From: Candidatus Zixiibacteriota bacterium
GTDB taxonomy: Bacteria > Zixibacteria > MSB-5A5 > GN15 > JAAZOE01
Length of the DNA: 21,581 nt
NCBI GenBank assembly: GCA_043819555.1
Contig: JBDREQ010000005.1
Location: 1-21,581, forward strand
Direction: 5' to 3'
This document shows, one piece after another, positions 1,404 through 21,528 of the stretch (positions within the stretch are counted from its first letter, which is position 1; each line of letters starts with the position of its first letter). The notes under the pieces were generated by a model. The model was not told the origin of the DNA. It did not search any database and saw only the letters and a list, made by a program, of their open reading frames with translations. The translations under genes were made by a program, and so were the position numbers.

Positions 1404-1483
1404 ATCTCCCTCCTGACACAAAGGATTTAACAGTACTTGCACTGCGATATTGTCCGAGCCTTTTTTCTCGATATTTGTCAGTA

Positions 1484-1747: not shown

Positions 1748-1911
1748 TTTCCATCCCTTCTTTTTGGCGGCAATCATACCGCGCATTACGCCTGTTTTCT
1801 CGGATTAATGAACCTGAATCATCCCGGTCAGACCGGGAGACGGAAAATTATGCGCTGCTTAAATTGTGAGGTAAAGACGATGTCAAGCGTCTTTGGCGGG
1901 GATTTTTTATG

Positions 1912-1940
1912 GAGAGAGTGTTTTATTATTTCACTCTCTC
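1912..1940 (-). terminator. Stem-loop just downstream of tonB paralog 1 (terminator or 3' stabiliser)
   Basis: GAGAGAGTG-11 nt-CACTCTCTC, a perfect 9-bp stem 17 nt past the stop. No clear U-tract. Confidence 0.45.
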
Positions 1941-1957
1941 AAAATCAAAAGTATCAA

Positions 1958-2677: not shown

Positions 2678-2678
2678 T

Positions 2679-3296: not shown

Positions 3297-3343
3297 TTAA
3301 ATCACCACCTTTAAAAAACTGTTTTCATAAATAATCCCGGACA

Positions 3344-4569: not shown

Positions 4570-4607
4570 AGCTACAATTCCTCCACCTTATATTTACGTT
4601 TCACAAC

Positions 4608-5588
4608 TTAAATTTCTTTACCTTTTAGGGCTAATATCAAAAAAGCGCCCAAAGCCACAAACATGCCGCCGGAAGTTAATCCGATAAAGGACATTACTGA
4701 ATAAGAATCGCCTACCTGCGCCACCTTATCCGATGGATCAAATCCATACGGAGCGCCGATAAATGACAAAACCAGCATCCCCAGCCAGATAAGCACCGGA
4801 ATCCAGTTGTATTTCAGAGTATTCTTTAAATGAAGAGCAAACGCGTCGGCATCTTTGATTTTGACTCCAAACAGCAAATACAAATTGTACGCGCCCATTC
4901 CGACACAAGATAATATGAATAGGATCATTAGAATGCCGCTCAGGATCAGAATAAAGCCGCTTGAAAAAACATAAGAACCAAAAGTTCCTGCCGAAATTAA
5001 AGCCCCGATTCCAGTTATCGAGCGCCGGTCATAGCTAACCTCGGTAACTGTCGTCATATTGGCCGGAATAGTGCCCTCCTCGGTCATCGTCGCCAAAAGA
5101 TTTTCAATAGATGTCGTAGAATCAGCTTGTGCCACAACTTTCTCGGCACGCTCTTCATCAGTAAGCGTTTCAACCTTATCCGAAACCTTCTGAGCGGCTT
5201 CGGCGATTACTGCCGAATCGGTCAAAGCCTCTGTCGCTGCTACATCGGCCGCAGTATTTGCGGTAACAATTGGTACAAGACTCGTCTTCACAATCTCAAA
5301 ATACCCCGAAAACCACGGTAAGAATATTGCCAAAACCAAAATCAGTGACACTGCCGCCAAAAACATTTTTTCAAAATTCGAAACCCTGACTTCAAGTAAG
5401 GTGCAGTCATCCCTTACTTCACCCTGGCTCTGTCCGAATTTGGCCATTACTTTCTCAATAATCGATTTGCGTTCTTCATCCGATTTGAAAATGTCTCCCG
5501 CTTTTCCCGGAAACACGTCAAATCCGATATATTTAAACCGCTCATCGGAACTATCATACGGTTGTTTTTTCTTATCACCGTCAGTCAT
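4608..5588 (-). CDS. Hypothetical membrane protein (~4 TM, large Ala/Thr/Glu-rich loop)
   Basis: Four clear hydrophobic segments, GGAGA RBS, tightly packed between the TPR gene and exbB. No family recognised. Confidence 0.8.
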   Translation of the reverse strand: MTDGDKKKQPYDSSDERFKYIGFDVFPGKAGDIFKSDEERKSIIEKVMAKFGQSQGEVRDDCTLLEVRVSNFEKMFLAAVSLILVLAIFLPWFSGYFEIVKTSLVPIVTANTAADVAATEALTDSAVIAEAAQKVSDKVETLTDEERAEKVVAQADSTTSIENLLATMTEEGTIPANMTTVTEVSYDRRSITGIGALISAGTFGSYVFSSGFILILSGILMILFILSCVGMGAYNLYLLFGVKIKDADAFALHLKNTLKYNWIPVLIWLGMLVLSFIGAPYGFDPSDKVAQVGDSYSVMSFIGLTSGGMFVALGAFLILALKGKEI

Positions 5589-5629
5589 AAAATCTCCCGT
5601 AAAAGCAACTCCAACAACTTAACTATATA

Positions 5630-7417
5630 TCAAAATTCAAACTCGGTATCCGACTTGCCTTGTTTGGCGTCGGCATTCCCCGGTTCGCATTTCAAAACTT
5701 TATTATACCAGTCAAATGCATCCTTAAAAAATGGACGCGATTCCTCTTTTTTATCTTTTTCCAGCAAATCGGCGGCATGGAGATGGTAACCCTGGGCAAC
5801 ATAAAGCATAACATTGGCGCTGCCGCAATTGTCCATGCCCTTTTCCTTGAAACAATTTAATGCTCGCTTAAAATATCCTATGGCTTTCAAATAGTTGGTA
5901 TAGCATTCGGCGCCAAAATATGAAAACCCAAGGGTAATCAAAGCCTCGCAATTGGTGGTATCCAAAGCATATGCCTTTTCAGTCCACAGTATTCCGTTTT
6001 CACAGTCCCCCAACTGGCGTATATAAGTATCCGATATAAGCAAATAGGCTCGAGTTTTGGTAGAATCCAACTCAACCACTTTAAGTAAATAATCTACCGA
6101 TTTTCCCCAGTCTTCAAGCTGCAACGTGCAATAAGAGGCATTAAGATATATACCGGCATCGTCCGGACCGATATCAATACGGCGGTCATAATAAATAAGA
6201 GCATCGGCGTATTCCTTAATTTGATGAAATGAAATCGCCGCCGAAACCGCATATCTTGAATTTTCCGGTTCAAGTTCACTGGCCTTAACATAATAACTGG
6301 CCGCACTGGCATAATCATCCAGAGCCTTATAAGCATCCGCAATCCTACGATTCAAATCGGCATCCGGCTCCCATTCGGAATCCTGCCCTTTCATCCATTC
6401 TATATGCTTAATTAAATTATCGATGCCGACCTGGTATTGTTCCAATGCAATTTTGGAACGGCCAAGATAAAGATAAATATTGCTGGGTACGTCACCGATG
6501 GAAAGAACGTAACTGAGAGCCGAATCGGCCGATTCATAACCGCCCAGGTTAAAATAAGCTCGGCCAATATTAAAAAAGACTTCGCCATCGGTGCTGTCGT
6601 TCGATAATTCCAGGAATTTCCTGTAAGAGCCGATCGTTTCAGTAAATCTCTGTTTTTTCGTCCCCTGATCGCGTGCTGACAAACCTGCCATGATATATAG
6701 TTTGCCTGCTTCTTTCCAGGCATAAGCATAGGTCGTGTCCCGGCTGAGTACAATGCTCAATTGATTCAGGGCCTCGGTATATTGGTTTTGAACCATGTAT
6801 GCGCGAGCCAGTCGAAAATACACGTCAAGATTGGTTGTATCCATTTCAATAACTTGATTATACTCATTAATGGCTAAAGGATATATTTTCGAAAAATAAT
6901 TGGCATCGCCAAGATTGACATGAAATTCCGCCTGATCCGGACCGATCTGGATTGCTTTACGGAATTCAATATCGGCCTTGGTATATTCTTCCCGCTCCAT
7001 AAATACCAATCCCAGGCCGTTATGAAACCATGATTTTTCTTCCTTGGCCTTATTTATCCCCTTATTAAAGTCCTTTTCAGCATCATTTATTTTGCCTTGC
7101 TTCAGCAATACTGAGCCCTTTAAATATAGGGCCTCATATAATTTCGATTTTTTATCCAGAGTAATCTCAAATTGCTCTAGAGCTTCCTCAAATTTACCCC
7201 GGGCATTAAATATTTTTCCTTTTAATAGATAATTGTAGGCATATGAGGGATCAGTCCTTATAGCGCCATCAAGTGATATCAAAGCCTGGGCCGTGTCAGA
7301 ATTATCTAATGCTGTCAAAATTTGGGGATCAATTTCCTCGGCAAAAATGGTCGAAGAAAATACCCCCACCATAATTATTAATATACAAATCCATCTTGAT
7401 GTTTTAATAAAAGCCAT
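5630..7417 (-). CDS. Exported tetratricopeptide-repeat protein (~595 aa)
   Basis: Start reassigned to MAFIKTSRW (signal peptide ...STIFA|EE). Many TPR motifs (e.g. WFHNGLGLVFMEREEYTKADIEFRKAIQIGP); Cys-rich C-terminal repeats. Confidence 0.9.
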   Translation of the reverse strand: MAFIKTSRWICILIIMVGVFSSTIFAEEIDPQILTALDNSDTAQALISLDGAIRTDPSYAYNYLLKGKIFNARGKFEEALEQFEITLDKKSKLYEALYLKGSVLLKQGKINDAEKDFNKGINKAKEEKSWFHNGLGLVFMEREEYTKADIEFRKAIQIGPDQAEFHVNLGDANYFSKIYPLAINEYNQVIEMDTTNLDVYFRLARAYMVQNQYTEALNQLSIVLSRDTTYAYAWKEAGKLYIMAGLSARDQGTKKQRFTETIGSYRKFLELSNDSTDGEVFFNIGRAYFNLGGYESADSALSYVLSIGDVPSNIYLYLGRSKIALEQYQVGIDNLIKHIEWMKGQDSEWEPDADLNRRIADAYKALDDYASAASYYVKASELEPENSRYAVSAAISFHQIKEYADALIYYDRRIDIGPDDAGIYLNASYCTLQLEDWGKSVDYLLKVVELDSTKTRAYLLISDTYIRQLGDCENGILWTEKAYALDTTNCEALITLGFSYFGAECYTNYLKAIGYFKRALNCFKEKGMDNCGSANVMLYVAQGYHLHAADLLEKDKKEESRPFFKDAFDWYNKVLKCEPGNADAKQGKSDTEFEF

Positions 7418-7496
7418 TGTTCGCTCAAACCCTTTCAATTCAAAAGAAATCGAGAGTTCCATAATACAAAATACGCTTCTTATGTCAAGCTGTTTT

Positions 7497-7751
7497 TCAA
7501 GAGTCATTATCCTGACCAACTTCCTCAACCAATTCATGCAAACTCTCATTTTCTTTTCCCCTTATTTGCTTAAAAGCGATTATTGATTGTCCCATTCGAG
7601 CCACAAAATAAAGGCTTACGAAAATGCCAATCACCCAGCGAAATGAATCACCCAATGAACCGGGATAATAAATCGCTATGGCCATCCCGCCAATAAACAT
7701 GACAAATGCCGAAAACATGTTTATTGCAATTTGTAAACCGCTGGTCGCCAT
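7497..7751 (-). CDS. Small 2-TM membrane hypothetical protein (~84 aa)
   Basis: MATSGLQIAINMFSAFVMFIGGMAIAIYY...FRWVIGIFVSLYFVARMG: two TM helices and an acidic tail. Confidence 0.65.
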   Translation of the reverse strand: MATSGLQIAINMFSAFVMFIGGMAIAIYYPGSLGDSFRWVIGIFVSLYFVARMGQSIIAFKQIRGKENESLHELVEEVGQDNDS

Positions 7752-7828
7752 ATTATTTATACCATCAATAATACAATTAAGAACAACAATTCTTCCCGGC
7801 AAAAGTTTGAATAATATGAATTTAACGA

Positions 7829-7844
7829 ATCAAAACCCGTGCCA
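7829..7844 (-). promoter_or_regulatory. Candidate sigma-54 (-24/-12) promoter
   Basis: Minus strand TGGCACG-GGTT-TTGAT versus consensus TGGCACG-N4-TTGCW (A instead of C at -12). Lies ~80 nt upstream of the 7751 start. Confidence 0.45.
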
Positions 7845-8016
7845 TCAAACAGGATTGTATAAAATTTTTATCTTGTTGTTAATCAGCGAGTTATTAATTC
7901 TGCTCCAAGCTTGAAATTACCCGTTTCAATGCTTTTATCGTCGGATTCCCCGACGATAACAATCATCAACCAAACTATTCTATTACAACATCTTACGATT
8001 CGCAATATTTGCGGAA

Positions 8017-9171
8017 TTACTCCAGCCATTCGGCATTACATACGATTTTTTTCTCGAAGCCTATCTCAATCATTATTTTACCGCGATATCCCTCAAAATC
8101 TCCTTTTGTATTAACAGCAGGATACCAGGTAAACCTTGACATGATTTCTGAAATATTTTCTTTTAGTTTATCAGAGACACTAGAAGGTGAAAAATTTATC
8201 GTATTCCCATCCTGATTAATATAGATTATGCCTGATGCTCCGCCAAATGCGTTTTTAGTCAGACTGCTGGCGTTTTTATATCCCAGGGGAAAATTTCTCG
8301 GGATTGGAAAGAGGCTAATATCATCGGGATTTAGGCTGAGTGTCATAAAATATTTTTCTGCATGTGTCATATCTCCAGAACTGTCAATGGATTCAGTTGG
8401 TGAATAAGGATAGTCTATATTATCAAAAAACCTGAAGACAAAAAGAAAATCAGACGCAATCGCTGTACCATTGATTGATGCCGGTGTGAATTCGGAATTT
8501 ATCAAAGCTGTCAATACCGAATGCGTACCCTTATCCATCCCTGAAAACGGGAAGGATACATCAATTAATTCTCCCATTTCATCTATTATAATTCGAGCTG
8601 CGACTATTTCATATTGGCCGCTTTTGCGGGACGGATCGACACGAAATTTCATCGGCGGTATTTTTTTTGCTTCAGGCAAGACGATAGTATTTAATCTCAA
8701 AAATTCATAGGCCAAATCTCTATCGTATTTGTACCCGGATTCGGTTTCATTATCCTGGAGTACAAAAGGCAGCTGGAGATCGATTGAGCCATTCACGAAA
8801 AACTCATAGCCAAATATTACTTTGATGGGAACACTTATTGGCTCTCCCAATTTTCTACCTATGGTAAACTGGAATTGGATTTTTTTGAGTTTCTTTTTCA
8901 CCGATTCAATCCAGCGCAAAGAATCCGGGGAAAAATTTATCTCCTGGACCTTACCCTTTCCATCAATACTGAGAATGGCTTTGATTTCAGACTGCGAAAA
9001 TCGTTTTTTAGATATTTTGTGATCCAGTTTTATTTGCGGAATCTCTTTGGGGTAAGGCAAAGAAATTCCTAAATAGTTATGAAACGAACCTATATTGGAA
9101 GCCGATCCAATATTCGTTCCCAAACCCAAACAGATAATAATTAAAGCCGGGAAAATCCAATTTCTAACCAT
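8017..9171 (-). CDS. Exported protein with three TonB C-terminal-like domains
   Basis: N-terminal signal/anchor, then three I-[DN]-x-x-G beta-hairpin motifs (SIDGKGKV, IIDEMGEL, YINQDGNT), two followed by FTPASINGTAI / WYPAVNTKG-type TonB-C motifs. Confidence 0.7.
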   Translation of the reverse strand: MVRNWIFPALIIICLGLGTNIGSASNIGSFHNYLGISLPYPKEIPQIKLDHKISKKRFSQSEIKAILSIDGKGKVQEINFSPDSLRWIESVKKKLKKIQFQFTIGRKLGEPISVPIKVIFGYEFFVNGSIDLQLPFVLQDNETESGYKYDRDLAYEFLRLNTIVLPEAKKIPPMKFRVDPSRKSGQYEIVAARIIIDEMGELIDVSFPFSGMDKGTHSVLTALINSEFTPASINGTAIASDFLFVFRFFDNIDYPYSPTESIDSSGDMTHAEKYFMTLSLNPDDISLFPIPRNFPLGYKNASSLTKNAFGGASGIIYINQDGNTINFSPSSVSDKLKENISEIMSRFTWYPAVNTKGDFEGYRGKIMIEIGFEKKIVCNAEWLE

Positions 9172-9763: not shown

Positions 9764-10990
9764 TTACCTTTTATGGCATTGAATACATAAATCCATAGCC
9801 GGATCAAGCGGAAGATAGTTTTCAAAATTAGCGCCATGGAGTTTGTGGCAACTAAGACAGGTCAGCTGCTTCTGAGTTCGGGGATCTGTTATATTGCCTC
9901 CCGCTGGATGTGATACCTTATGTGCTGAAACATGACAAGTCGGGCACAAATTCATGCCATCGGCGTTCAAGTATCGGTCATTATCAGAACCATGCGGAGA
10001 ATGGCAATTGGAACAATCCATACTATTATGCGTGATATATTCGGATTTCTTTTTGACCGAAAACTCCGGACCGGAAAAATGACAGCCCATGCATAATTCG
10101 GATTGCCCGCTTGCCAGTAGGGATTTTCCTGAAGATGAATGCGGATTGTGACAATAAAGACATGATTTTTCGGTATTGAGGTTATGGGTATATTTTATAT
10201 CGACTTTCGTTCCAATAGAGGAATGACATTTTCTACATATAGTTTTGACATCGGAAACTAACTCAAAACTGGATTTCCCTTCAGAAGTTTTATGACAAAT
10301 TTCACATTTATTGTTTTTGAAAGGAGCATGTTGATTTTCCATTAATAGGTTCCCGGTGGATGTTGCATGGGGATCATGACAAGTCATGCAATTAGCCTTT
10401 GACATATTATAACCCTTATGCCGGGTATTGAAACTTTCATCCCGATCATGGCAATCAAAACAGATAAAGGGAATGTCACCGACTAACAATTTTGGATTAT
10501 TTGAATTGTGAGGCTGGTGACAGACCTGGCAATCCCCATCTTCCACTGGTGAATGCACTACCGCCCTATTTTTCCACTCGGCCACATTAGTATGGCAATT
10601 CGCGCAAAGCTCAGTTGTGGGAGAAATAAGTTGACTGGTAAAACCGGAGGCATGAGGATTGTGGCAAAGAGTGCAATCTCCTTCTCGAACCGGGCCATGA
10701 ATCGATCCACCTTCCGCCATATGCCCAATTTCTTCGTGGCAATTCATACAAATGATTTGATTATCGTCATTAAGAAGCGAAGCGTGCTGGGAGGCATGGG
10801 GGTTGTGGCACGATGAACACTTACCGTTCGCGAAAGCAGTATGCTGATGCTTTTTGCCCAATAAATCTTCGATTTCTGAGTGGCAAACCAGGCACACCGA
10901 AGGCTCATCGACAACAACATTTGCCGCTGATATCGGACTTATCAGGACAAGCAAGAGTATTATTCCGCTAAGGTATGTTCGGGTTTTCAT
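9764..10990 (-). CDS. 16-heme periplasmic c-type cytochrome (doubled-CxxCH repeat type)
   Basis: Sec signal peptide; 16 CxxCH counted, in repeating H-x-P...CxxCH-x-PH...LCxxCH units. ATGA overlap with the upstream gene. Confidence 0.97.
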   Translation of the reverse strand: MKTRTYLSGIILLLVLISPISAANVVVDEPSVCLVCHSEIEDLLGKKHQHTAFANGKCSSCHNPHASQHASLLNDDNQIICMNCHEEIGHMAEGGSIHGPVREGDCTLCHNPHASGFTSQLISPTTELCANCHTNVAEWKNRAVVHSPVEDGDCQVCHQPHNSNNPKLLVGDIPFICFDCHDRDESFNTRHKGYNMSKANCMTCHDPHATSTGNLLMENQHAPFKNNKCEICHKTSEGKSSFELVSDVKTICRKCHSSIGTKVDIKYTHNLNTEKSCLYCHNPHSSSGKSLLASGQSELCMGCHFSGPEFSVKKKSEYITHNSMDCSNCHSPHGSDNDRYLNADGMNLCPTCHVSAHKVSHPAGGNITDPRTQKQLTCLSCHKLHGANFENYLPLDPAMDLCIQCHKR

Positions 10991-12987
10991 TGTTCATCCC
11001 CCTGCTTTTCGGTATCGACTTTGGTGTGGCAGATACTGCAATCTCCTCCCTCAAAAGGATCGTGCGAATTGGCCCTCATTAATGCACCCTTGGCTGAGGC
11101 ATGAGGATCGTGACATTTGCGGCAATCGATTTGATCACCGCTCAATCCGAGATGCCTGGATTTAAATCCGGAATCTTCCCCATCGTGACAATCCAAACAT
11201 AACGCCGGAATACCGGAATTCAACAGGCTTTCATGTGCCGCGGTGTGGGACGAGTGGCATCCAAGGCATTCTCCCCTCCCGACCGGTGCATGGGGCGGAC
11301 CGGAGGCAAGAAGAGTTTTCAATTCGGTGTGGCATGACAAACACAATTGATCCTCTTTATCAAGCAATAGCGATGGCAATTTGGCATAATGGGGATTGTG
11401 GCATTTTATACATTCACCGTTGATCACGGGCTGATGAGCGCTGACCAGAGTTTCCGGATTGCCTCTTATATCGTCATGGCAGTCAGAACATAAGGCATTA
11501 AGATCCTGTGCCAAAAGTCCATTGAAATCAGAAGAATGAGGCTGATGACACTGATCACAGGCATGATCTTCGAAGGGGGGATGAATAGTGTAATCATCGG
11601 AAGAAACCGCCAATCCTTCATGACAAGTGAAACAAAGTTCATTGCGGTCATCCCGCAACATAAATTCCCGGCTTGAAGTATGAGGATCATGACAGGCAAT
11701 GCATCGGCCAGCTTTCAAAGGAACATGAACGTCTTTCTGCACCATCCAATCGTTAATTTCATTGTGGCACTCGCCGCAGAGAACAAGCCCTTTGCCTTTT
11801 GTCAGTTTATTTTCATCGGAACCATGAGGAAGGTGGCAATCAAGACAAGTCCCATCGGCAAAGGGGAAATGCGCGTGTTCAGGTGATTGATTTGCCTTCC
11901 AATCGGCATGGCATTTGTCGCATAGCTCGCTTATTTTCCCCGCAATGAGTTTTTTATTCTTCTCTCCGTGACCGTTATGACAAAGAGTACAATCTTCCAT
12001 AGCCGGCTTATGGGTGGACGCCTTAACCAGTTCCGGGGCAATATCACCGTGACATTCCAGACAAAGTTGTTGCGGACGCCTGGTCAAAAGCGCCTTGTTC
12101 GGGGAACCGTGAGGGGCATGGCATTCAAGACATTTGCCAGCCGCGACCGGGTCATGGACATCATCTCCCCCCATATCAGACTCATCATGACACGTCAAAC
12201 ACAAATCGCCGCCTTCAATTTGTACTCCAAAGGGATTTGAATCATCCGCATCGTTGTGACAACTCTCGCAATCGCCATCCGTCATAGGTGAATGAGCCGA
12301 AATTGTGAATAAACCGGGTTCGTTAGATGAATGGGCCGAGTGGCATGAAGAGCAATCCATTTCGGCGACCGGATACCCGGCATGGGATTTCCGTAAATTT
12401 TCAGACTTAATATCATGACAATCACCGCATAATTCCAATTGAGGTTTTAATAATAAATGCTCATTAGATGCTGAATGAGGATCATGGCAGGCGAAACAGC
12501 CTTCTTCAAGCGGTTTATGTCGATGCTCCCGTTCGAAATCGGCGCGATTATGGCAGGCAAAGCACAAATCAGGCATGGCTTCGGTCAATAATGCCGAACC
12601 TTCACCGGCGTGGGGATTGTGGCAAGCAACGCAATTGCCGTCTTTAACCGGTTGGTGCACAACGGGGAGATCAGGACCGAGTTTGGATTTTTCATGACAC
12701 TCAAAACACAGTGTCTGACCCGGGGTTTTTAGACGCAGCATACCGACCAGTCCATGGGGTTTATGACATGATAAGCATTCCTCTTTTTCAAACGGCTGAT
12801 GACTGTCAGAACCTTTAAAGTCATCCGCCTTATGGCATTCGAGGCATTTGCCTTTTGAAGAAAATCGTTGGCCGCGCTTCACCTGGGCCGAAACCTCTTC
12901 AACACTTAATACTAATATCAAGGCATTGATTATACCAATTAATAACATCAATCTAATAAAAAGAGATTTTAGTATCATAGCCTTCAC
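10987..12987 (-). CDS. 26-heme c-type cytochrome (doubled-CxxCH repeat type)
   Basis: Signal peptide/anchor; 26 CxxCH counted, with a regular distal-His pattern. GTG start after AAGGA. Confidence 0.97.
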   Translation of the reverse strand: MKAMILKSLFIRLMLLIGIINALILVLSVEEVSAQVKRGQRFSSKGKCLECHKADDFKGSDSHQPFEKEECLSCHKPHGLVGMLRLKTPGQTLCFECHEKSKLGPDLPVVHQPVKDGNCVACHNPHAGEGSALLTEAMPDLCFACHNRADFEREHRHKPLEEGCFACHDPHSASNEHLLLKPQLELCGDCHDIKSENLRKSHAGYPVAEMDCSSCHSAHSSNEPGLFTISAHSPMTDGDCESCHNDADDSNPFGVQIEGGDLCLTCHDESDMGGDDVHDPVAAGKCLECHAPHGSPNKALLTRRPQQLCLECHGDIAPELVKASTHKPAMEDCTLCHNGHGEKNKKLIAGKISELCDKCHADWKANQSPEHAHFPFADGTCLDCHLPHGSDENKLTKGKGLVLCGECHNEINDWMVQKDVHVPLKAGRCIACHDPHTSSREFMLRDDRNELCFTCHEGLAVSSDDYTIHPPFEDHACDQCHQPHSSDFNGLLAQDLNALCSDCHDDIRGNPETLVSAHQPVINGECIKCHNPHYAKLPSLLLDKEDQLCLSCHTELKTLLASGPPHAPVGRGECLGCHSSHTAAHESLLNSGIPALCLDCHDGEDSGFKSRHLGLSGDQIDCRKCHDPHASAKGALMRANSHDPFEGGDCSICHTKVDTEKQGDEQ

Positions 12988-13026
12988 TTCAGATCCTTTT
13001 AATAATAATTTCCCTGTTCCCCATAT

Positions 13027-14715
13027 CTAAAACATTGAATCAAAGTACTCACTAAGCGCTTCTTTGTTATACTCTATCTGAGAATTTTCCTTGATAATAT
13101 CCAACGTTTCATCGAGCATTTCTTTAAACATGCGCTGAAACATTACTTTTCGAATTTCCATTTCCACATCGGCCAGCGCCTTCACTCGTCCAGCTCTTCG
13201 AGAGATGACATTGAAAATAATAAATCCTTCAGCGGTTTTGTACAATCCGCTCGATTGCCCCGGCATGAGATTTATAATTTCGGCTCTTACAGAAGCCGGA
13301 AATCTATCAATGGTAATCCATTCATGCCCTTCCGTTTCCCGTTGCTGTGTCTTTTCGTATTGAGATTTCAAGAACTTAAAATCAGCGCCGTCTTGCAGGC
13401 GCCGAGATACTTCCTCAGCAGTGGACGAATCGGCGATTTCAATTCTATTGATCTGAAATTGTACCGATTCCCGAAAGTCGTCCTGATGAGAGGAATAATA
13501 TTCTTCAAATTCGCCATGATTAAATTTTATCTTTGGAAAAACCATTTCTCCCAGATAATGATCAACCAGGGCACTATCAAGACTTTGTTCATATAACGCA
13601 GTGACTATATGATTATCGAGATAGCCACCCTCTTTAGCCGCGGCGGCAAGCAGCAACTCTTCACGCATATCTTCAATGCCCGCATTCATGTTGTACTCAA
13701 AGGATTGGTCTCCGGCTGACATGGCCGAGCGCGAAACGGACCTTCGCAAATCCTGTTCAGTCATTTCAACCCGACCGTCAATCCGCATTGCGACCGAATC
13801 AGATCCATTCATAAATTCCTGAGTAAAAAGAGATGACGAGTCTTCAATAATGTCTCGTATCATTGCGGAATCCATTTCAATGCTGTAGTCAAGAGCGAGG
13901 TCTTTCAGGAAAGAGCTCCAGGATTTTTCTCTTTTTTCGCTGATTTGGATTCCTTTAATTTTCCTTTTTAAAGTTTCCAGTTCCGATTCATCGGAAGATA
14001 CCGACTTCTCCAATCGTAAAAATGCAAAAACTCTGCGATATGAAAAAACGGGAGACAGTTCTCCGGGGGATAGTTTTTGGGCCTGACTTCTGAGCGCTTC
14101 TTCGACATCGGCGTAGTATTTGAGTTTGTGCAGCCCCCCCTGGTATTTATACATATCAAGAGATAACCCTGACGCAATACTGTCCATATCAGCCCCATCC
14201 TGCACCATTTGATGAATTTTCTCGGCATCATCTTTTAATTGTATAGAAATGGTCCGGATCTGCATCTTAAAATAATTTTTCCGGAAGAATTCTAATATTT
14301 CTTCTTCTCCAATTGAATCATTTGGCTGATAATTGTCACTGACATATTTACTAATTGCATTTTTGAGTCGGCTTTTTTCCAACTCCAAATGAAGGTTTTC
14401 ATTTTCATCCAGTCCCAGCGCGTATGCTTCTTGTACTATCAAACGGTCGTTGACCAATTTGGTGAAAAGCTGCCGATAATTGAAACCTTCTCTTTCTTTA
14501 CTATCTTTTCCGGAATGCGATTGCACAATTTCCCGATCAAGCGAACTGGAATAAATGGTATCTCCGTTCACGACCGCCAAAACCTGGTCGTTTAGTGCGG
14601 ATATGTCTTTAGTTTCACTCTGGCCATGAGCATATGGGGAAATCATCAAAACAGCAATTGCTATAAAAATCACATTCCAGCTGTGGTTCCAGTTTTTAAT
14701 AGTTTCAAATCGCAT
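13027..14715 (-). CDS. SurA/PrsA-like chaperone with two parvulin (rotamase)-like domains; OscH-like
   Basis: Signal peptide, VLAVVNGDTI...LVNDRLIVQEAYALGLD N-domain, and two parvulin-like segments (QDGADM...GGL...LSPGELSPV; QDGADF...LMPGQSSGLYKTAEGFIIF). Confidence 0.88.
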   Translation of the reverse strand: MRFETIKNWNHSWNVIFIAIAVLMISPYAHGQSETKDISALNDQVLAVVNGDTIYSSSLDREIVQSHSGKDSKEREGFNYRQLFTKLVNDRLIVQEAYALGLDENENLHLELEKSRLKNAISKYVSDNYQPNDSIGEEEILEFFRKNYFKMQIRTISIQLKDDAEKIHQMVQDGADMDSIASGLSLDMYKYQGGLHKLKYYADVEEALRSQAQKLSPGELSPVFSYRRVFAFLRLEKSVSSDESELETLKRKIKGIQISEKREKSWSSFLKDLALDYSIEMDSAMIRDIIEDSSSLFTQEFMNGSDSVAMRIDGRVEMTEQDLRRSVSRSAMSAGDQSFEYNMNAGIEDMREELLLAAAAKEGGYLDNHIVTALYEQSLDSALVDHYLGEMVFPKIKFNHGEFEEYYSSHQDDFRESVQFQINRIEIADSSTAEEVSRRLQDGADFKFLKSQYEKTQQRETEGHEWITIDRFPASVRAEIINLMPGQSSGLYKTAEGFIIFNVISRRAGRVKALADVEMEIRKVMFQRMFKEMLDETLDIIKENSQIEYNKEALSEYFDSMF

Positions 14716-14718
14716 GGA

Positions 14719-15819
14719 CTAATTTACCTGTTTTGTATCCCACTTTTTTAAACCAGAATCCAGTTTATCAAGCAGTTTACTTAATGCCGCGCTGATAAGC
14801 TTGCCATCAGAATAGTTTTTCTTTGCACCCAATAATGTCTCTGAATTACTTCCGGACATGGTCAGGTCATAAGCCGCGATTATATATCCTGTTTTTGAAC
14901 ACAGATAGCGCCCGCTGAGTTCAATCACCGGTCCCGGACCTCCAGTAGTGCCGCTTCCCGGCTGGAAAAAATTCACACTTCCGGTGAGCAGTAAATCAGC
15001 TCCAAGCTCATTATTAATCTTCTCAGCCAATTTTATATCAATTCCTCCGCGCGGCATTTTTTGGTTTTGACGGAAAAAAGATTCAACCAGGCTTGGCTCA
15101 ATCACTCGATATTCTTTGCGAACTAATTCCGATATTACTCTTACCGATGCGATATCGCCGGCATATTGGGATGATGATAAATTATCAAAAGGTACAACGG
15201 CAATTTTTAATGAATGAGGCGGATCGGATATTGCTCCGCCATCAGAAACCTGAGGGATGGTAAAATCCTCAAATAATCGGTCGATCAATTTGTCCATAAG
15301 CGTATCGACCGAAACAATTCGGCCTAGATCAAACAAGCCGCCAAATCCACTACCCTCGGCCCCGATTGATTTTGCCCAGATAATTATTTGATCATCAGTT
15401 CGCATTAAGCGCAGAGAGATACCCAATTCAGGGTTTTCATCATCTCGATACTTATCGATTGACCCAAGAAGCAGGAGATGAACGTCCAGTTCTTTTTCAA
15501 TGGCACGTATATCAAGAGATGATAATGCGCCGGGAATACGAATGCGGTTATTTCTCAGAGTGTTTCTCAGATCAAGAGAGTCGACAACGTTTATATCTTT
15601 TTGGCTGCAATACCCGTAAAATTTTTCGGTTATTACCCGTTTGGCCTCATTTGTTTCCGCATAATTGGCCAAAGGCAGGATCGCTATTTTGGGCCTTGAT
15701 GCCTCGACTTCATCATTTATTGGGTCAGGCGATTTTTCACCGAAAGCGCAAGGTGTCATCACAAGATATATTAATAAAAAAAACATCGCGAGACCGATAT
15801 ATCTGATTTTTATATCCAT
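14719..15819 (-). CDS. Exported protein with two tandem CsgG/TolB-N-like domains; OscG-like
   Basis: Two repeats starting KIAILPLANY and KIAVVPFDNLS, each with ELxxxLLLxGS and a closing (R/G)-x-x...(W/Y) strand pattern; similar to the neighbouring lipoprotein. Confidence 0.75.
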   Translation of the reverse strand: MDIKIRYIGLAMFFLLIYLVMTPCAFGEKSPDPINDEVEASRPKIAILPLANYAETNEAKRVITEKFYGYCSQKDINVVDSLDLRNTLRNNRIRIPGALSSLDIRAIEKELDVHLLLLGSIDKYRDDENPELGISLRLMRTDDQIIIWAKSIGAEGSGFGGLFDLGRIVSVDTLMDKLIDRLFEDFTIPQVSDGGAISDPPHSLKIAVVPFDNLSSSQYAGDIASVRVISELVRKEYRVIEPSLVESFFRQNQKMPRGGIDIKLAEKINNELGADLLLTGSVNFFQPGSGTTGGPGPVIELSGRYLCSKTGYIIAAYDLTMSGSNSETLLGAKKNYSDGKLISAALSKLLDKLDSGLKKWDTKQVN

Positions 15820-15823
15820 AAAT

Positions 15824-16399
15824 CTACTTAATCAGTGTTCGCAGAATACTTGAGACGCAATCTCTAATCGCCTGGCTTTGCGATTTTCCTCCGGTTCCAA
15901 ATAAAGAGGACCAGAATCCCCTACCGCCGGAATTTTGTGTGGCCGACCAGACTATCTCACCGGATTCAGTCTCGACCATTCGCACTACCAGAGTCACTGA
16001 ATTAGTTACTGCATTCCCGCTCCTGGTTGAAGCTAATTCATTTACTGCTCCCAGAAAAAGTCCCTGAACTTTTAGTTCTGTTCCAATAGAAATAATCTGT
16101 TCTTTGGTCAGGTTACTGGTGCGAACGATACCATGTTTTTCAAGAACGCGACTGACCTCCCCCGGTTCAACTACGTCAAAGGCTTTGCTGGAAAGAAGTT
16201 CGGTTAGAAATACATGAGTTACTCGAGCGCCCGCTCCCTGTTCTTTTGACAGATTATCAAAAGGAATTATCGCCACGCGTTCTACAAAATTAAAAGTAAA
16301 TTCGGGGTGCAAAAAAACTGTCGCGCGATTGCCGGCGCACCCCCCCAAAAGCCCCCCCGCCACTATTATTGCTATTAATGTTGTTGCCAAGTACTTCAT
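15824..16399 (-). CDS. CsgG-like (DUF799/GNA1162-like) lipoprotein; OscF-like
   Basis: Lipobox-like LLGG|C; RVAIIPFDNLS...LFLGAV...LVVRMVETESGEIVWSA pattern typical of the CsgG/LpoB fold. Confidence 0.8.
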   Translation of the reverse strand: MKYLATTLIAIIVAGGLLGGCAGNRATVFLHPEFTFNFVERVAIIPFDNLSKEQGAGARVTHVFLTELLSSKAFDVVEPGEVSRVLEKHGIVRTSNLTKEQIISIGTELKVQGLFLGAVNELASTRSGNAVTNSVTLVVRMVETESGEIVWSATQNSGGRGFWSSLFGTGGKSQSQAIRDCVSSILRTLIK

Positions 16400-16418
16400 T
16401 TATGCATCCTGATATATC

Positions 16419-18602
16419 TTAAAACCCGGACCGTAATCCAAACTGGAGCGACGTCACACGGGATCTGTCAATCTGTGGAAACTTGCTGTTGGTGTAATTT
16501 ACGTTCAATGCAGTTCGTTTGCCAAGTAAATAATTTAAATGGATATTCCGCTGCAAGGTTTGAGCATTTATTTCATCGTCATTTAGTGTGATCAAACCTC
16601 CTATGGATATACGGGGAGTTACATTCCAACTTAGATTGAATTCATAAAACGTATTTTGGTGGGTGTTATCGGTGTTAAGTATTAATGAACCGCGCATTAA
16701 TATTGTTTGCGTTGCGCGTAAATCCATGCTGGTTGTCAATTGACGCCGTATTCTACTGTCATTGTCGGATTGGCCATGGCTTGTTTGGTACAGCAGCCCA
16801 GTAACTACATCAAGGGCTTGACTTAAATTACTATTGACCATTAAACGGTAGGTCCAACTGTCAATATGAATCTTAGAATCATAGCTATTGTTTCTGCTAT
16901 ATCCGGCCTCGCCGGATAAATTGAGGCCCGGCAATAATTGTCCATTCGATTTAAATGAAAGATTATTTGTTTCTTGAACAGTCGCCTGATCAACCGACGT
17001 AAGCCTCGAAAAAGCACCGAGTGACAGTTTAAGGGTGGAAAAAGGATTATACGCCAAGCTATATGAAAAACTGCTATTGCCGTTGCGTACACCGCCGGTT
17101 TTGAATTTTGATACCCCCGCCTGATATCTTATCCCATGCTTTACATTTGAGGATATTTTGTGGCTGGTTGATGCCGCATAATATATCTGGCTTCGGCTGT
17201 TCACGAAATCGCCGCGGGGCTGGTAATTCCAGGAAAATTCGATGGAAGATTCGACGTTTTTTGAAAACATGTAGGTACTTGAGATTTCGGTCCGATGAGA
17301 CGTTTGTTTCCTGGTATCCTTGCTCATATCGGCCGATTCCTCCAGGACCTGGATTTCAGTAACATAAACGTTAACCGCGTCGTTAATTCCGTAATTAACG
17401 GCTTTAATATAGCGCGAATGCGCGGTCGGCGAAAATACCTCATATCGGCCGTAACTACTGTTGAAGCTGCTTGCAACATCGGAAACCTTGGTCCATATCA
17501 GGTTATCTGAAGAGGTGTAAACATCCCAGTAAATCAATGGTCCCGAAGGCGCATCCGTATAAATATATATCGCATCTATGCCATAATCAAAACCGAGATC
17601 AACACCGATATTTTGATTTGCATTCCCTTCGCCAATATTAATTGGAGGCTCCGTTGGTTGAGTAATATCACCGTCGGACAGAGCCTCTATATCTGTCAAT
17701 TCTCCCTGATCGGGAGTTTGATCATAAGCATATAATGCTGAAGCAAAATGAATTTCTTTATAAACAGGGGCCGCGAAATCTTGTTGTGTTGACCGCATTC
17801 GATGCGAGAGATTATATCCCGAATTCAGTCGAAGTTTTTTGTTAAAGAACTGGGCAGATTGATTCCAGCGAAACAGATGATTGTTTTCATCGATTATCAA
17901 ACCGGTCGCATTATTACGGTTATGACTAAATGCCAGATTATAATACAAATTAAAGGTATTCAGCTGATAGCTGGCGCCGGTCTGAATTCTGGTTTCACTA
18001 TCATTTCGGTTACTTAGATCAATATCATTGTAAGAATGGTTGCGATCAAACTGAATTGTCAAAATAGGATAGTTCGGTGAATTGGTAGAAAAACGCAAAT
18101 TTGTATTGTCCCGATGCAGATTGGTGGCTTCATTATTACTAATTGATTTTTGACGGCTGATTAATCCTCGAAAAATAAAGTCGGAATGATTCCAGGCCAT
18201 CTGGGCTGACGGTCTCAACCTTTGCCTCCATGAGTTTTCGCCGAGACTGTGATCTATCCCCAGATCATTGTATTGCAGCGACAAATGAGTTTTGACATAC
18301 GGCAATAATTGTCGAGACCAACTAATTGAATAATCCTGATTGAATGTCTTATCGATCTCCCCGGCGGTTGTGGATTTCACACTGTTTAAATTAACAGTAC
18401 CTCTGATAGATTCAGGAGGAAAAGCCAAGGTATTGGAATACAAAAAGATAGTCCAAATAAAGGAGACGGCAATTGTATATAAAGGAGTAATACCGGATGA
18501 ATTCGGGAAATCCAGTGAGGAAGTGCTGGCTGATTTCCGGCTTCGTGTAAAATGGCTTCCAAGCATATGTAACAAGTTGACAAACATTTTATCTATCATC
18601 AA
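16419..18602 (-). CDS. Large outer-membrane beta-barrel protein with inserted discoidin-like domain; OscE-like (start uncertain)
   Basis: Alternating amphipathic strands rich in Y/W/F/N/S, C-terminal LQFGLRSGF (terminal Phe, BAM-type signal), and signal-like ...FLYSNTLA|FPP. The true start is probably downstream of 18602. Confidence 0.82.
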   Translation of the reverse strand: MMIDKMFVNLLHMLGSHFTRSRKSASTSSLDFPNSSGITPLYTIAVSFIWTIFLYSNTLAFPPESIRGTVNLNSVKSTTAGEIDKTFNQDYSISWSRQLLPYVKTHLSLQYNDLGIDHSLGENSWRQRLRPSAQMAWNHSDFIFRGLISRQKSISNNEATNLHRDNTNLRFSTNSPNYPILTIQFDRNHSYNDIDLSNRNDSETRIQTGASYQLNTFNLYYNLAFSHNRNNATGLIIDENNHLFRWNQSAQFFNKKLRLNSGYNLSHRMRSTQQDFAAPVYKEIHFASALYAYDQTPDQGELTDIEALSDGDITQPTEPPINIGEGNANQNIGVDLGFDYGIDAIYIYTDAPSGPLIYWDVYTSSDNLIWTKVSDVASSFNSSYGRYEVFSPTAHSRYIKAVNYGINDAVNVYVTEIQVLEESADMSKDTRKQTSHRTEISSTYMFSKNVESSIEFSWNYQPRGDFVNSRSQIYYAASTSHKISSNVKHGIRYQAGVSKFKTGGVRNGNSSFSYSLAYNPFSTLKLSLGAFSRLTSVDQATVQETNNLSFKSNGQLLPGLNLSGEAGYSRNNSYDSKIHIDSWTYRLMVNSNLSQALDVVTGLLYQTSHGQSDNDSRIRRQLTTSMDLRATQTILMRGSLILNTDNTHQNTFYEFNLSWNVTPRISIGGLITLNDDEINAQTLQRNIHLNYLLGKRTALNVNYTNSKFPQIDRSRVTSLQFGLRSGF

Positions 18603-18604
18603 TG

Positions 18605-18635
18605 GGAACGCCCGGACTATTTGCCCGGGCGTTCC
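18605..18635 (-). terminator. GC-rich stem-loop between the omcS-like gene and the barrel gene
   Basis: GGAACGCCCGG-9 nt-CCGGGCGTTCC, a perfect 11-bp stem. No U-tract on the - strand. Confidence 0.65.
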
Positions 18636-18693
18636 ATTCTTTATTATCCTGGTTCTGTTTTACTTCAGAATCTAAGATATTAAGCCCGCAAGA

Positions 18694-19752
18694 TTATGGG
18701 GCAGCTATTTCAATGTGGTCACCAGCATCCTTTACATGGCATTTGTTGCAAAGTGAACGCTGATTGGGGCTTGCGTATGGATCCTCAATAGCCAAAGATC
18801 CGGACTCAACACCATCTTCTTCCAAAAGCGTTACATTGAAATCCCAGCGTCCGGCATTCGGAGCTGATGAGGCGTGCGCGCGATGGCAAGTCAGACACAT
18901 AACCTTACTGCCTGCATCTGGACCATCTGTTGACGCAACCGCGGCATTCGCATCTTCAAATGGCACAGCTGCCAGATAGGAAGTCAGCGGATTGCCGCCG
19001 ATTATATCTTCGGTTCCGTTATAGAGACCATAGGCTGTAGCCACATCACCGCCAAGAGTCGAACCTGATGGGTGAATTAACTTGGTGCTGTTATCATGAA
19101 AATCACCATGGCAATTTCCACACCACTCGCTCATACCGCTCTTATAGGCAGTATGATTATCATCCAACTCATCCGTATTCCTGGCATCGATACCTTCGGC
19201 ATCCGGAGTGGCGCTGGTGAAGGTATAGAGGCCATCCTGTATCGTGCCAACGGTATTCAGGAAACGAAAACCGTCATTGCCATGAGGATCATGGCAACTG
19301 GAACAACCAAGAGCGGTGGACGGAAACGTTCCACCCGGGGCTGCCAAAAGAGTAGCGTCTGCACTAACTCCCTTAGATGGGGCGTCGATATTATGACCGG
19401 CGGCATCGCCGACAATTGGGTGACTCGCGCCTGAATGACCGTCATTAAGGTTGTCTTCGGTTAGGAACACAAAATCGCCGCCTCCGTTCAGCCCGTTCGG
19501 GGCCAAAGGATCGGCGGCAAAAACGCCGCGAGAACCGGTGCTATGACAGGACAGACAGACGTCACTGGGTGTCTCGTCCTTCAATAGCCAGGCATTTCCA
19601 TCGGGGCTATCGGTGTCAACCCATGCTCCGTTTTCGCTATTGTGCATCGTATGACAACCATTACAATGTGCCACACCGGCATCATGAAATGCCAATGCGT
19701 TGCCGCCAAGCGCAAAACAAAGAGCGGCAATCAGTAGTAGGTACCTATGCAT
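18694..19752 (-). CDS. omcS: OmcS-family hexaheme cytochrome c (candidate nanowire subunit)
   Basis: Signal peptide ...NALA|FHDAGVAHCNGCHTMHNS; 6 CxxCH. OmcS-like motifs GGDF, GHNI, APGGTFP...CSSCHDPHG, GMSEWCxNCH, HP, PFE, CLxCHRAHAS and QRxLCNKCHxKD occur in the OmcS order. AAGGAG RBS. Confidence 0.92.
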   Translation of the reverse strand: MHRYLLLIAALCFALGGNALAFHDAGVAHCNGCHTMHNSENGAWVDTDSPDGNAWLLKDETPSDVCLSCHSTGSRGVFAADPLAPNGLNGGGDFVFLTEDNLNDGHSGASHPIVGDAAGHNIDAPSKGVSADATLLAAPGGTFPSTALGCSSCHDPHGNDGFRFLNTVGTIQDGLYTFTSATPDAEGIDARNTDELDDNHTAYKSGMSEWCGNCHGDFHDNSTKLIHPSGSTLGGDVATAYGLYNGTEDIIGGNPLTSYLAAVPFEDANAAVASTDGPDAGSKVMCLTCHRAHASSAPNAGRWDFNVTLLEEDGVESGSLAIEDPYASPNQRSLCNKCHVKDAGDHIEIAAP

Positions 19753-19789
19753 ACCTGTTTCTCCTTAATACAAAACAAAGGTGGTTGTA

Positions 19790-19824
19790 GGTTAACATGT
19801 TAACCATGTAGCTAACACATGTGT
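19790..19824. promoter_or_regulatory. Palindromic putative operator upstream of the omcS-like gene
   Basis: Perfect 16-bp palindrome GGTTAACATGTTAACC (19790-19805) and 10-bp ACACATGTGT (19815-19824). Confidence 0.45.
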
Positions 19825-19854
19825 ATTTATTTATTTTAAATTCTTGATTTGAAA

Positions 19855-20961
19855 TCATTGAAGTTTCCCCCCATCCAATGTATACGTGGAATTGTTTTTT
19901 GAGGTCAATTCCAGCTGAGAATTCGATGAGTCCTTATTATTAAATTCTGCATTGCGATTTGTGACGAATAACGGCAAATGACACGCTTGTACCCTGTTTA
20001 AGAATACCTGGCCAATAAAAATAGTACCCGCATCGTCGACGGCCAACCAGGCCGGGTGGTAAAACCAGCCCAAACTTGATCCCTTGCCGCCAAATTCCCC
20101 AAGGAATTTTCCATCAAAGTTATAACAGACAACGGCAAAACGGTGCTTATCAAGGACGAGAATAATCTGATTATCGGTCATCGTGGCCGAAACAGGGAAG
20201 TTCAATTCCCCCATGTTATTCCCCCGATAACCGATCGCTTTGATAAATTTCCCGGATAAATCATATAGATAGACAGTGCCCAGAGATGCGACAGGCAGGC
20301 AGATCACGTTGCCAACTACCGAGATCGAGCCAAAAACGAGTTCATTTCCTCTTTCACCTGACAGGTCTTCCACGACGGGAAATCGGTTGCAAACCTCACC
20401 CTCAACGGTAATACAGATTATTTGCTTTTCAAAGGCATCCAGAGCCCAGATATTGCCATTATCATCCGTCGCAATTGATTCCAGCCTACGTGAATCTATT
20501 CCGGATTTTTGAGAATATTCCATTTTATCCAGGTATGTGCCATCATAGTCAAATATATGAATTTCTCTTCCCCGCTGAGTAGAGCCGAGTACATATATCC
20601 GGCCTGATGGGTCCACCGCAAAATCCTGCGGCAAACCACAATATTCGCTAACGGAGAATTGGTATTTGTACACCCCCTGACCCGAAAAAATAACAATCCG
20701 GTTATTTCCACAATCAGCTATATAGATTTCGTCGGTGTGTGAATCGGCCACTATTCGTCCAGGGCGCAGTAAGTTGTTCTGGCTGCCGGGAAGCTGAAAT
20801 TGATAAGAAAACTCGGCCGGAACTGAAAGCTGGGTTATTTCCTGCGAAAATCCATGGATTTGAAGAAATAATAAAAACGCCCCAGCCAATATTGCAGATT
20901 TAAGCAACAAATTGGGCGATATAAAAGGGAAACTTCTTATCCTACTAATCAATTCAAACAA
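19855..20961 (-). CDS. Exported NHL-repeat six-bladed beta-propeller; OscD-like
   Basis: NHL repeats (LLRPGRIVAD...IYIADCGNNRIVIF; PQDFAVDPSGRIYV; GELNFPV; GWFYHPAWLAVDDAGTIFIG). TTG start after AAGAGG; signal-like N-terminus. Confidence 0.9.
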   Translation of the reverse strand: MFELISRIRSFPFISPNLLLKSAILAGAFLLFLQIHGFSQEITQLSVPAEFSYQFQLPGSQNNLLRPGRIVADSHTDEIYIADCGNNRIVIFSGQGVYKYQFSVSEYCGLPQDFAVDPSGRIYVLGSTQRGREIHIFDYDGTYLDKMEYSQKSGIDSRRLESIATDDNGNIWALDAFEKQIICITVEGEVCNRFPVVEDLSGERGNELVFGSISVVGNVICLPVASLGTVYLYDLSGKFIKAIGYRGNNMGELNFPVSATMTDNQIILVLDKHRFAVVCYNFDGKFLGEFGGKGSSLGWFYHPAWLAVDDAGTIFIGQVFLNRVQACHLPLFVTNRNAEFNNKDSSNSQLELTSKNNSTYTLDGGKLQ

Positions 20962-21023: not shown

Positions 21024-21441
21024 CATTATCTACGACAACTTAATCGCTACTATTAAGGCCTTTCTAATCCCGTATACATAACTTGCCCCAATTTAATACG
21101 TTTTCAGAAATACGCAAGTATATTTATCCTGTTTTTTTGCATTATTCATGGTGTAATTTGTCCTCATTAATTAGGCATTATATTTGCTATTTTATCCAAA
21201 ATACAATTGAAAAATGAGTAACAATAGGAACAAGATATTTTGATCTTTTATTTCAAAGATGAGCCCATTTTTGGGCCCCTGAAAACGGCTTTTTAATCCA
21301 GTTTTTAATATCGACTTTGCGTATAAGAGCAAAACAATGATGTAATTATATCCGATTCGCCAAGCTAACGGGATTTAAAAGAATCTTATGCGACAGACGT
21401 CCCGTCTGCCCCCGCCAAAATCAGTAAAATTACCAATAAAG

Positions 21442-21528
21442 CGGAGAGGCTGGGATTCGAACCCAGGAACGAGTTGCCCCGTTAACTGCTTAGCAGGCAG
21501 CTGCCTTCAGCCGCTCGGCCACCTCTCC
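21442..21528 (-). tRNA. tRNA-Ser(GCT)
   Basis: GGAGAGG/CCTCTCC acceptor stem, anticodon arm GCTGC-CT-GCT-AA-GCAGT, long variable arm, CTGGG-TTCGAAT-CCCAG T arm, G discriminator. CCA not encoded. Confidence 0.97.

Follow-up and report, generated by a model that had tools for sequence, protein, structure and literature searches.

Results

An osc-type gene cluster in a Zixibacteria genome

We analyzed contig JBDREQ010000005.1 of a Candidatus Zixiibacteriota bacterium over its full length of 21,581 nt (the window), which is part of a 3.35-Mb, 79-contig genome scored 97% complete. The window carries eight genes related to the osc (omcS-companion) cluster of Geobacter sulfurreducens, GSU2505-GSU2493 (PMC13194489, PMC12977616; papers with a PMC number are cited from excerpts throughout). 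We consider it probable that this osc-type operon makes and exports an OmcS-family hexaheme cytochrome, most likely polymerizing into an extracellular heme wire. The eight open reading frames (ORFs) span positions 20961 to 9764 on the minus strand, and all are intact and of full length. In transcription order, the features are:

19855..20961, minus strand: NHL-repeat beta-propeller, OscA equivalent, 368 aa (Pfam NHL, 2.6e-14)
18694..19752, minus strand: OmcS-family hexaheme cytochrome of a short clade, presumed filament subunit, 352 aa (331 aa mature)
18601..18638, minus strand: 16-bp RNA hairpin without a U-tract, 3' of the hexaheme stop codon; it overlaps the earliest potential start of the barrel gene (z -4.6)
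16419..18602, minus strand: outer-membrane beta-barrel, OscE equivalent (Pfam F5_F8_type_C_2; top Foldseek match MtrB)
15824..16399, minus strand: PelC-like lipoprotein, OscF equivalent, 191 aa, lipobox Cys21 (PelC profile matches)
14719..15819, minus strand: protein with two PelC-like domains, OscG equivalent, 366 aa (PelC profile match)
13027..14715, minus strand: SurA/PrsA-like parvulin peptidyl-prolyl isomerase (PPIase) chaperone, OscH equivalent, 562 aa (Pfam Rotamase_2, 1.2e-17)
10987..12987, minus strand: 26-heme cytochrome of paired-CXXCH, DmsE/MtrA-like modules, GSU2495 equivalent (26 CxxCH)
9764..10990, minus strand: 16-heme cytochrome of the same module type, final gene of the run (16 CxxCH)

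The ORF calls confirmed the co-oriented run of eight genes described in an earlier note on this DNA. The 48 heme motifs counted there were recovered as 6 + 26 + 16 CxxCH motifs in the hexaheme and the two large cytochromes. The intergenic gaps are 102, 91, 19, 4, 3, 39, and -4 nt in transcription order, and all five distal ones are below 40 nt, again as noted before. Pfam families found in the cluster proteins are NHL propeller, paired-CXXCH cytochromes, LpoB/CsgG-like, and Rotamase. The OmcS-family hexaheme, the propeller, the barrel, the lipoprotein, and the double-domain gene each occur once in the genome, in line with the reported lack of an omcT-like paralog.

Relation to the Geobacter osc cluster

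As stand-ins for the G. sulfurreducens region we used a canonical set of 34 metagenome loci retrieved by the OmcS N-terminal motif. In one of them (L120), the first hexaheme scores 645 bits against the OmcS structure 6ef8, and a 467-aa gene has named Geobacteraceae homologues. The longer canonical loci begin with a propeller, a ~440-aa hexaheme, and sometimes a ~1000-aa spermidine-synthase-domain gene; further on come a YncE-type propeller (~470 aa), a barrel (~730 aa), a lipoprotein (~190 aa), another protein of ~390 aa, and then the genes for a PPIase and a large cytochrome. The osc letters were assigned by position, counting back from the 26-heme GSU2495, with the PPIase as OscH, the 390-aa protein as OscG, the lipoprotein as OscF, the barrel as OscE, and the 470-aa protein as OscD. 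They agree with the excerpt of PMC13194489, because the ~470-aa gene at position D matches the 473 aligned residues of OscD and the PPIase falls on position H. The same excerpt assigns folding to OscH, secretion to OscEFG, and morphology to OscD.

All 15 canonical queries (positions A, S, OscC, E, F, G, and H, and the 26-heme cytochrome) had their best whole-genome match in the window gene of the same position, at 21-38% identity. Three canonical queries for positions B and D gave partial matches only, on other contigs of the genome. Among the related loci, which are the best 80 of 247 related stretches, the seven genes from the propeller to the 26-heme cytochrome were co-ordered in 32 of 80, or in 30 of the 44 with enough flanking sequence; the record titles of these loci cover several phyla. 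The proposed kinship with the osc cluster is thus upheld by one-way best matches for the seven genes tested and by conserved gene order. The same evidence for the E, F, G, and H equivalents argues for the predicted fold-and-secrete module.

The window and the osc cluster share, in the same order, the propeller, the hexaheme, the barrel, the small lipoprotein, the double-domain protein, the PPIase, and the 26-heme and 16-heme cytochromes. The window differs in having one hexaheme instead of three, six downstream accessory genes instead of eight (it lacks the OscD-position propeller and the eighth gene), no OscB-like gene, and a Zixibacteria host. In Geobacter "clade 3A" clusters, too, a single, GSU2501-like hexaheme stands ahead of the secretion block, but all eight block genes are kept there (PMC12977616), whereas the subunit of the window falls outside the OscC-like group.

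The hexaheme is an OmcS-family member

By sequence, OmcS (6ef8) is the sole PDB match of the hexaheme (phmmer E 1.6e-40). It is also the sole significant Foldseek match of an AlphaFold2 model with a pLDDT of 82 (TM 0.74 on the query). Conservation of histidines was read from an alignment of 72 rows, including 10 of the OmcS clade and 60 of the short clade. Exactly 12 His are invariant across the OmcS clade (10 rows), and each of the 60 short-clade rows, the window hexaheme included, retains every one of them. OmcS has 12 His ligands, 11 from its own subunit and one from the neighbor (PMC6584659). Since all 12 conserved His are present, the inter-subunit ligand is most likely kept in the window hexaheme. 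In OmcS we take this ligand to be His16.

The hexaheme and OmcS (6EF8/6NEF) have in common the fold, six CxxCH motifs in order, the 12 His, and a Phe-His mature N-terminus. They differ in sequence (~30-35% identity) and in mature length (331 vs 407 aa), with deletions relative to OmcS of ~38 residues net near 154-199, 11 near 303-316, and 22 at 371-392; the median lengths of the short and OmcS clades are 330 and 416. Unlike OmcS, the hexaheme has a short C-terminal tail and three extra clade-conserved histidines, His85, His179, and His198 (mature numbering). These occur in 56, 60, and 60 of the 60 short-clade rows and in 1, 2, and 5 of the 10 OmcS-clade rows, and could possibly provide additional metal or ligand sites. 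The sequence contains no lipobox. Complex prediction with two hexaheme copies and four hemes returned a score of 0.01, which was used neither for nor against polymerization.

A quick IQ-TREE of 81 subunits comprised 53 short-clade, 22 OmcS-like, and two OscC-like rows and four long-branched distant rows, on which the tree was rooted; the tree tool flagged this root as unsure. The rows were drawn from 105 candidates having the six motifs and the N-terminal motif, after removal of 21 rows with unscored OscD status, two second copies, and one near-duplicate. All 53 short-clade rows fell on one branch (SH-aLRT 99), outside both the OmcS-like and the OscC-like groups. In BLAST against the paralogues of one locus, the window hexaheme scored 172 bits with the OscC-like and 165 with the OmcS-like protein, and 164 vs 149 bits with a second pair. 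Because the short clade lies outside both groups and the paralogue scores are nearly equal, we classify the window hexaheme as an OmcS-family member whose orthology to OmcS is not demonstrated. The strict label "OmcS" of the earlier note is therefore not established.

The accessory proteins

The window propeller was the best genome match of the omcS-upstream propeller in three of three canonical clusters (24-25% identity). The AlphaFold2 model of the barrel (pLDDT 90, pTM 0.63) shows 28 long strands by count, no N-terminal plug domain, and a CBM32/F5-8-like all-beta domain inserted after strand 11, and the barrel ends in a C-terminal Phe. The mature part begins near 18422, and the true start probably lies downstream of the TTG. 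The protein is the best genome match of the canonical barrels (21-25% identity), and the predicted beta-barrel can be specified as an OscE equivalent, modelled with 28 strands. Its C-alpha diameter was estimated geometrically at 50-53 Å. MtrB was the top Foldseek match at a TM of 0.42, with the FimD usher and TonB-dependent receptors scoring similarly; in VIA-align MtrB ranked second (Z 18.2, rmsd 7.7, 386 aligned), tied with BtuB. An OscD-OscE fusion was considered and rejected (hhalign probability 0.3%).

The lipoprotein profile matched the PelC structures 5t11, 5t10, and 9h80 at E values of 3e-9 to 1e-7. Its Cys21 is invariant in 53 rows, and its identity to the canonical genes is 34-36%. 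The profile of the double-domain protein (26-30% identity to the canonical genes) matched 9h80 PelC over two stretches (E 5e-14). Both had been called CsgG-like; a weak Pfam CsgG match (E 8.6e-5) fits that name, but PDB profiles rank PelC first and contain no CsgG at E <= 1. The PPIase is the best genome match of the canonical PPIases (21-22%), barely above another PPIase on contig C63, and its assignment to OscH therefore leans on gene order.

Two known systems resemble parts of this set. With the PelBC export complex (9H80; PelC 5T10/5T11/5T0Z) it shares the PelC lipoprotein fold and a lipoprotein gene beside that of an outer-membrane barrel. The barrel model is, however, far larger than PelB (rank 41, Z 13.5), three PelC-like domains are spread over two genes, and the cargo is presumably a cytochrome rather than an exopolysaccharide. 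The MtrAB porin-cytochrome complex (6R2Q) likewise combines a large barrel with DmsE/MtrA-type multiheme modules, whereas the window barrel profile has no sequence match to MtrB, the barrel contains the inserted CBM32-like domain, and the cluster has extra chaperone and lipoprotein genes. The excerpt of PMC12307469 calls the secretion mechanism "still speculative", and OmcE clusters also contain a barrel and a propeller (PMC13712944).

One locus from another genome (L162:10244-12402, G083:C1) encodes two PelC-like proteins plus an NHL propeller; its 20-kb stretch contains no multiheme cytochrome, and the genes are possibly the same export machinery serving another cargo.

A conserved hairpin follows the hexaheme gene

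The 120 nt after the hexaheme gene folded with z < -2 in 51/51 related loci. At control positions this value was reached in 2/46 cases at the barrel end, 4/40 after the propeller, and 1/39 after the PPIase. The z-scores derive from dinucleotide shuffles that are approximate, some of the control sequence is coding, and the related loci are not independent of each other. The 3' end of the hairpin overlaps the next start codon, which belongs to the barrel gene in the window and to oscD at L001:2958-2995. This arrangement suggests, from the DNA letters, that oscD was cleanly removed behind a retained control element. A conserved hairpin at this place would also fit overproduction of the subunit relative to its machinery, which a polymer needs. 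Promoter and terminator scans gave chance-level results only.

OscD is an optional part of the cluster

The cluster had been described as complete. This does not hold: searches of the genome recovered neither an OscD-like nor an OscB-like gene, and the window has no eighth block gene behind the 16-heme cytochrome. Profiles for the OscD position gave only a partial match in the 97%-complete genome (E ~1e-8, on another contig), compared with E < 1e-160 for full copies in related loci, and a search for an OscD remnant inside the window found none. The OscB-like profile hit only a stand-alone ~297-aa protein that matches the spermidine-synthase domain. For the eighth gene (position of GSU2493, presumably an NHL-repeat protein) there was no canonical query, and the genome holds no close NHL paralogue. 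As part of our best explanation, we think it probable that the OscD and OscB modules either disappeared from the window copy or were never acquired by it.

L001, the closest relative, belongs to the same family and has an 80%-identical subunit; there, OscD directly follows the matching hairpin. A barrel gene lies within 4.5 kb 3' of the hexaheme in 51/80 loci, with OscD in between in 22 of the 51 and absent in 29. Five OscD-less genomes searched as a whole for OscD gave partial matches only (best E 1.7e-22). The 160 genomes of the order include 49 with a lipoprotein match at E <= 1e-20; besides the window genome, 24 of them are close (53-66% identity). OscD was matched at E < 1e-50 in 14 of these 24 and not in the other 10, among them a single-contig, 98%-complete genome. 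On the subunit tree, OscD presence requires 13 changes among 53 rows, with weak support on 24 of 78 branches. This distribution shows that OscD was repeatedly gained or lost; the tree does not fix the exact number and direction of the changes. The word "streamlined" in the earlier note is thus apt insofar as OscD and OscB were not found, yet such a layout is common rather than special to this genome, since 29/51 related loci lack OscD and a single hexaheme ahead of the accessory block is also described in Geobacter (PMC12977616).

Genes between hexaheme and barrel in related loci were also considered as second hexahemes and turned out to be OscD-like or transposase-like instead. Three loci with Fibrobacterota titles (L010, L024, L026) have similar transposase-like ORFs, as judged by eye, between the hexaheme and oscD. 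Seven further loci (L042, L043, L045, L049, L061, L076, L077) are rearranged, with the hexaheme gene located behind those of the large cytochromes or encoded on the strand opposite the secretion block; several of them are titled Thermoanaerobaculia.

Large cytochromes and possible electron supply

The 26-heme protein scored above the cut-off of TIGR03508 and is 38% identical to a partial canonical gene; GSU2495 itself is a ~70-kDa protein with 26 hemes (PMC12977616). The 16-heme gene, compared with related loci only because the canonical loci end earlier, follows the 26-heme gene in all five full-length related clusters inspected (L157-L159, L163, L164). The genome contains 18 ORFs with at least three CxxCH motifs. 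One of these encodes a hexaheme that combines a NapC/NrfH domain with a membrane-type N-terminus, and two are cytochrome b-multiheme fusions; we take these to resemble ImcH and CbcL. Another of the 18 is a DmsE-like decaheme gene that adjoins ccm-like genes, and a CcmF-like gene is present. Judging by their sequences, the NapC/NrfH-domain hexaheme, the cytochrome b fusions, and the decaheme could feed the large periplasmic cytochromes.

Genomic neighborhood and other cytochrome clusters of the order

Two further features of the contig lie outside the cluster:

21441-21528, minus strand: tRNA-Ser(GCT) (ARAGORN), upstream boundary, outside the system
358-9171, minus strand: genes for two TonB-like, two ExbD-like, ExbB, membrane, and TPR proteins and a 384-aa gene

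The contig ends 53 nt beyond the tRNA, so that the absence of an adjacent regulator, as remarked earlier, holds for the contig. Downstream, a ~590-nt gap separates the cluster from the 384-aa gene and the TPR/ExbBD/TonB-like run. The 384-aa gene is present in 5/5 same-family genomes searched and is unrelated to the cluster. A search for the 384-aa, TPR, and ExbB genes beside the hexaheme in the 80 related loci gave one weak TPR match only. The non-Geobacter host suspected in the earlier note is a member of the Zixibacteria; among the 120 matches listed for the flanking ExbB, 10 of the 12 named homologues are from this group (best 93% identity), the other two are labelled "FCB group" and "bacterium", and none is from Ignavibacteria. 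Ribosomal protein S3 is 86% identical to that of a same-family genome, 74-79% to those of three Zixibacteria-titled genomes, and 60% to one titled Calditrichaeota.

A same-genus genome (G006; L175, L176), itself 97% complete, matched neither the hexaheme nor the lipoprotein. Its DNA similarity to the window ends at position 9219 and, on the other side, at the 3' end of the tRNA (21441), and it carries other genes at both breakpoints of window:9220-21440; because the locus is rearranged there, no clean indel can be called. A recent island at the tRNA was considered and found unsupported, as there are no mobile genes and the GC content is genome-like. The 20 largest of 30 repeat families, which were those shown, included no repeat of the tRNA end.

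Other genomes of the order contain a second, more distant osc-like cluster type (L160, G043:C37; L161, G034:C3). It has two separate PelC-like genes, a ~570-640-aa gene at the barrel position, and several ~300-aa hexahemes; L161 also has a 42-heme cytochrome. A weaker lipoprotein match (32-40% identity) occurs in 25 genomes, and at E <= 1e-20 no genome has both cluster types. Many of the related clusters are flanked by a ~255-aa heptaheme cytochrome (L157:4295-5086, L158:3013-3804, L159:16529-17287, L163:699-1457, and another 17 loci), of which the window genome yielded no counterpart of full length.

Discussion

We propose that the operon would serve nanowire production in six steps. One transcript would be made, in which the observed hairpin after the hexaheme gene may keep the subunit above the machinery. 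Signal peptides would carry the proteins over the inner membrane and a Ccm-type system would attach the hemes, as suggested by the hydrophobic N-termini of the proteins and the CcmF-like gene. By homology to OscH, the PPIase would chaperone the hexaheme. A ring of PelC-like lipoprotein would sit beneath the 28-strand outer-membrane barrel, through which the subunit would pass, by analogy to PelBC and to the role of OscEFG. The subunits would then stack head to tail, one His ligating the heme of the neighboring subunit as in OmcS. Finally, the 26- and 16-heme cytochromes would bridge the periplasm from quinol-oxidizing inner-membrane cytochromes encoded elsewhere.

Several points weigh against this interpretation. 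The accessory proteins have low identity to the canonical ones (21-38%), best matches were sought in one direction only, and metagenome loci stood in for the G. sulfurreducens genes. The fold match of the hexaheme is not independent of its sequence match, as 10/130 rows of the AlphaFold2 alignment belong to the OmcS clade, and ~70-80 residues of OmcS are missing from the window subunit, which may include the interface. In the excerpt of PMC12977616, OmcS alone is known as a wire, the functions of OmcT, OmcJ, and GSU2501 are given as unknown, and true wire subunits outside the genus are described as not identifiable by sequence models. How much OmcS wires matter for electron transfer is a subject of dispute even in Geobacter (PMC13194489).

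Alternatively, the cluster might encode a giant porin-cytochrome conduit, in which both large cytochromes run through the barrel and a surface hexaheme, as a monomer or short oligomer, reduces or oxidizes minerals, while the PelC-like ring and the PPIase merely assemble the complex. The prominence of MtrB in both structural searches, the scores of both large cytochromes on the DmsE decaheme model, and the lack of a plug domain in the barrel model would fit such a conduit. But large barrels all look alike, and at a TM of only 0.42 the FimD usher and TonB-dependent receptors do comparably well. The hexaheme has no lipobox and keeps all 12 His, the hairpin suggests that it is overproduced, and a separate decaheme-plus-neighbor locus adjoins the ccm genes. 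We therefore rate a conduit in place of a wire as unlikely. Export and conduit roles are not exclusive, as one barrel could export the wire as well as charge it.

We give somewhat less credence still to an OscC-like hexaheme that acts as a cap, a nucleator, or a secreted redox protein without forming long wires, the cluster then representing the ancestral machinery for cytochrome secretion, which was recruited for OmcS only later, in Geobacter. This alternative is raised in PMC12977616, and it agrees with the position of the hexaheme directly ahead of the accessory block, like GSU2501, and with its slightly higher scores against OscC-like paralogues. These differences are small, however, and the quick tree sets the short clade outside both groups. 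The hexaheme also directly follows an OscA-type propeller, like omcS, and as the single hexaheme of its kind in the genome it has no other subunit to cap. That loss of OscD and OscB marks a decaying, non-working remnant, as the lack of hexaheme and lipoprotein matches in the same-genus genome might hint, is highly improbable, given eight intact frames and an OscD-less layout that recurs in 29/51 loci and in 10/24 cluster-bearing genomes of the order, including the single-contig one.

Production of a heme wire thus being our preferred interpretation, we asked what is new. The title of the publication on the osc system (Shen et al. 2025, Cell Chem Biol 32:239) describes it as widespread, and a further copy is for this reason unsurprising. 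Our literature search found no title on an OmcS-type cluster in Zixibacteria; the supplements of Shen et al. may bear on novelty. The excerpt of PMC8478452 links OmcS to other taxa, and the single-hexaheme layout is in print for Geobacter (PMC12977616). New here are the short-subunit clade, the optional OscD, the PelC-like ring proteins, the 28-strand barrel model, and the conserved hairpin.

A bolder idea, which we put forward tentatively and think doubtful at present, is that the short-subunit branch of the OmcS family, which is spread over Zixibacteria and further phyla with few cultured members, assembles a nanowire of new structure, with export through the barrel, charging through the same pore, and an optional OscD. 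If so, ~75 fewer residues per six hemes would make a thinner wire with more exposed hemes and extra conserved His. The 28-strand barrel, with an estimated C-alpha diameter of ~5 nm against ~4 nm for the OmcS filament, would pass a folded subunit, and the large cytochromes would charge the wire via the export pore. OscD would be an optional module that came and went repeatedly during evolution. Deletion of oscD is said to bundle OmcS wires into cables; should this hold, OscD-less genomes would be natural cable makers. The eight genes would then be the smallest working nanowire kit.

For comparative work, the cluster offers an eight-gene core that recurs without OscB, OscD, and extra hexaheme paralogues, and natural pairs with and without OscD among close relatives, such as L001 with its 80%-identical subunit. 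It is also a compact system for asking whether family proteins other than OmcS polymerize, a question described as open in PMC12977616. If the hexaheme does polymerize, cytochrome nanowires would extend to the Zixibacteria, and a shorter subunit would become available for bioelectronics.

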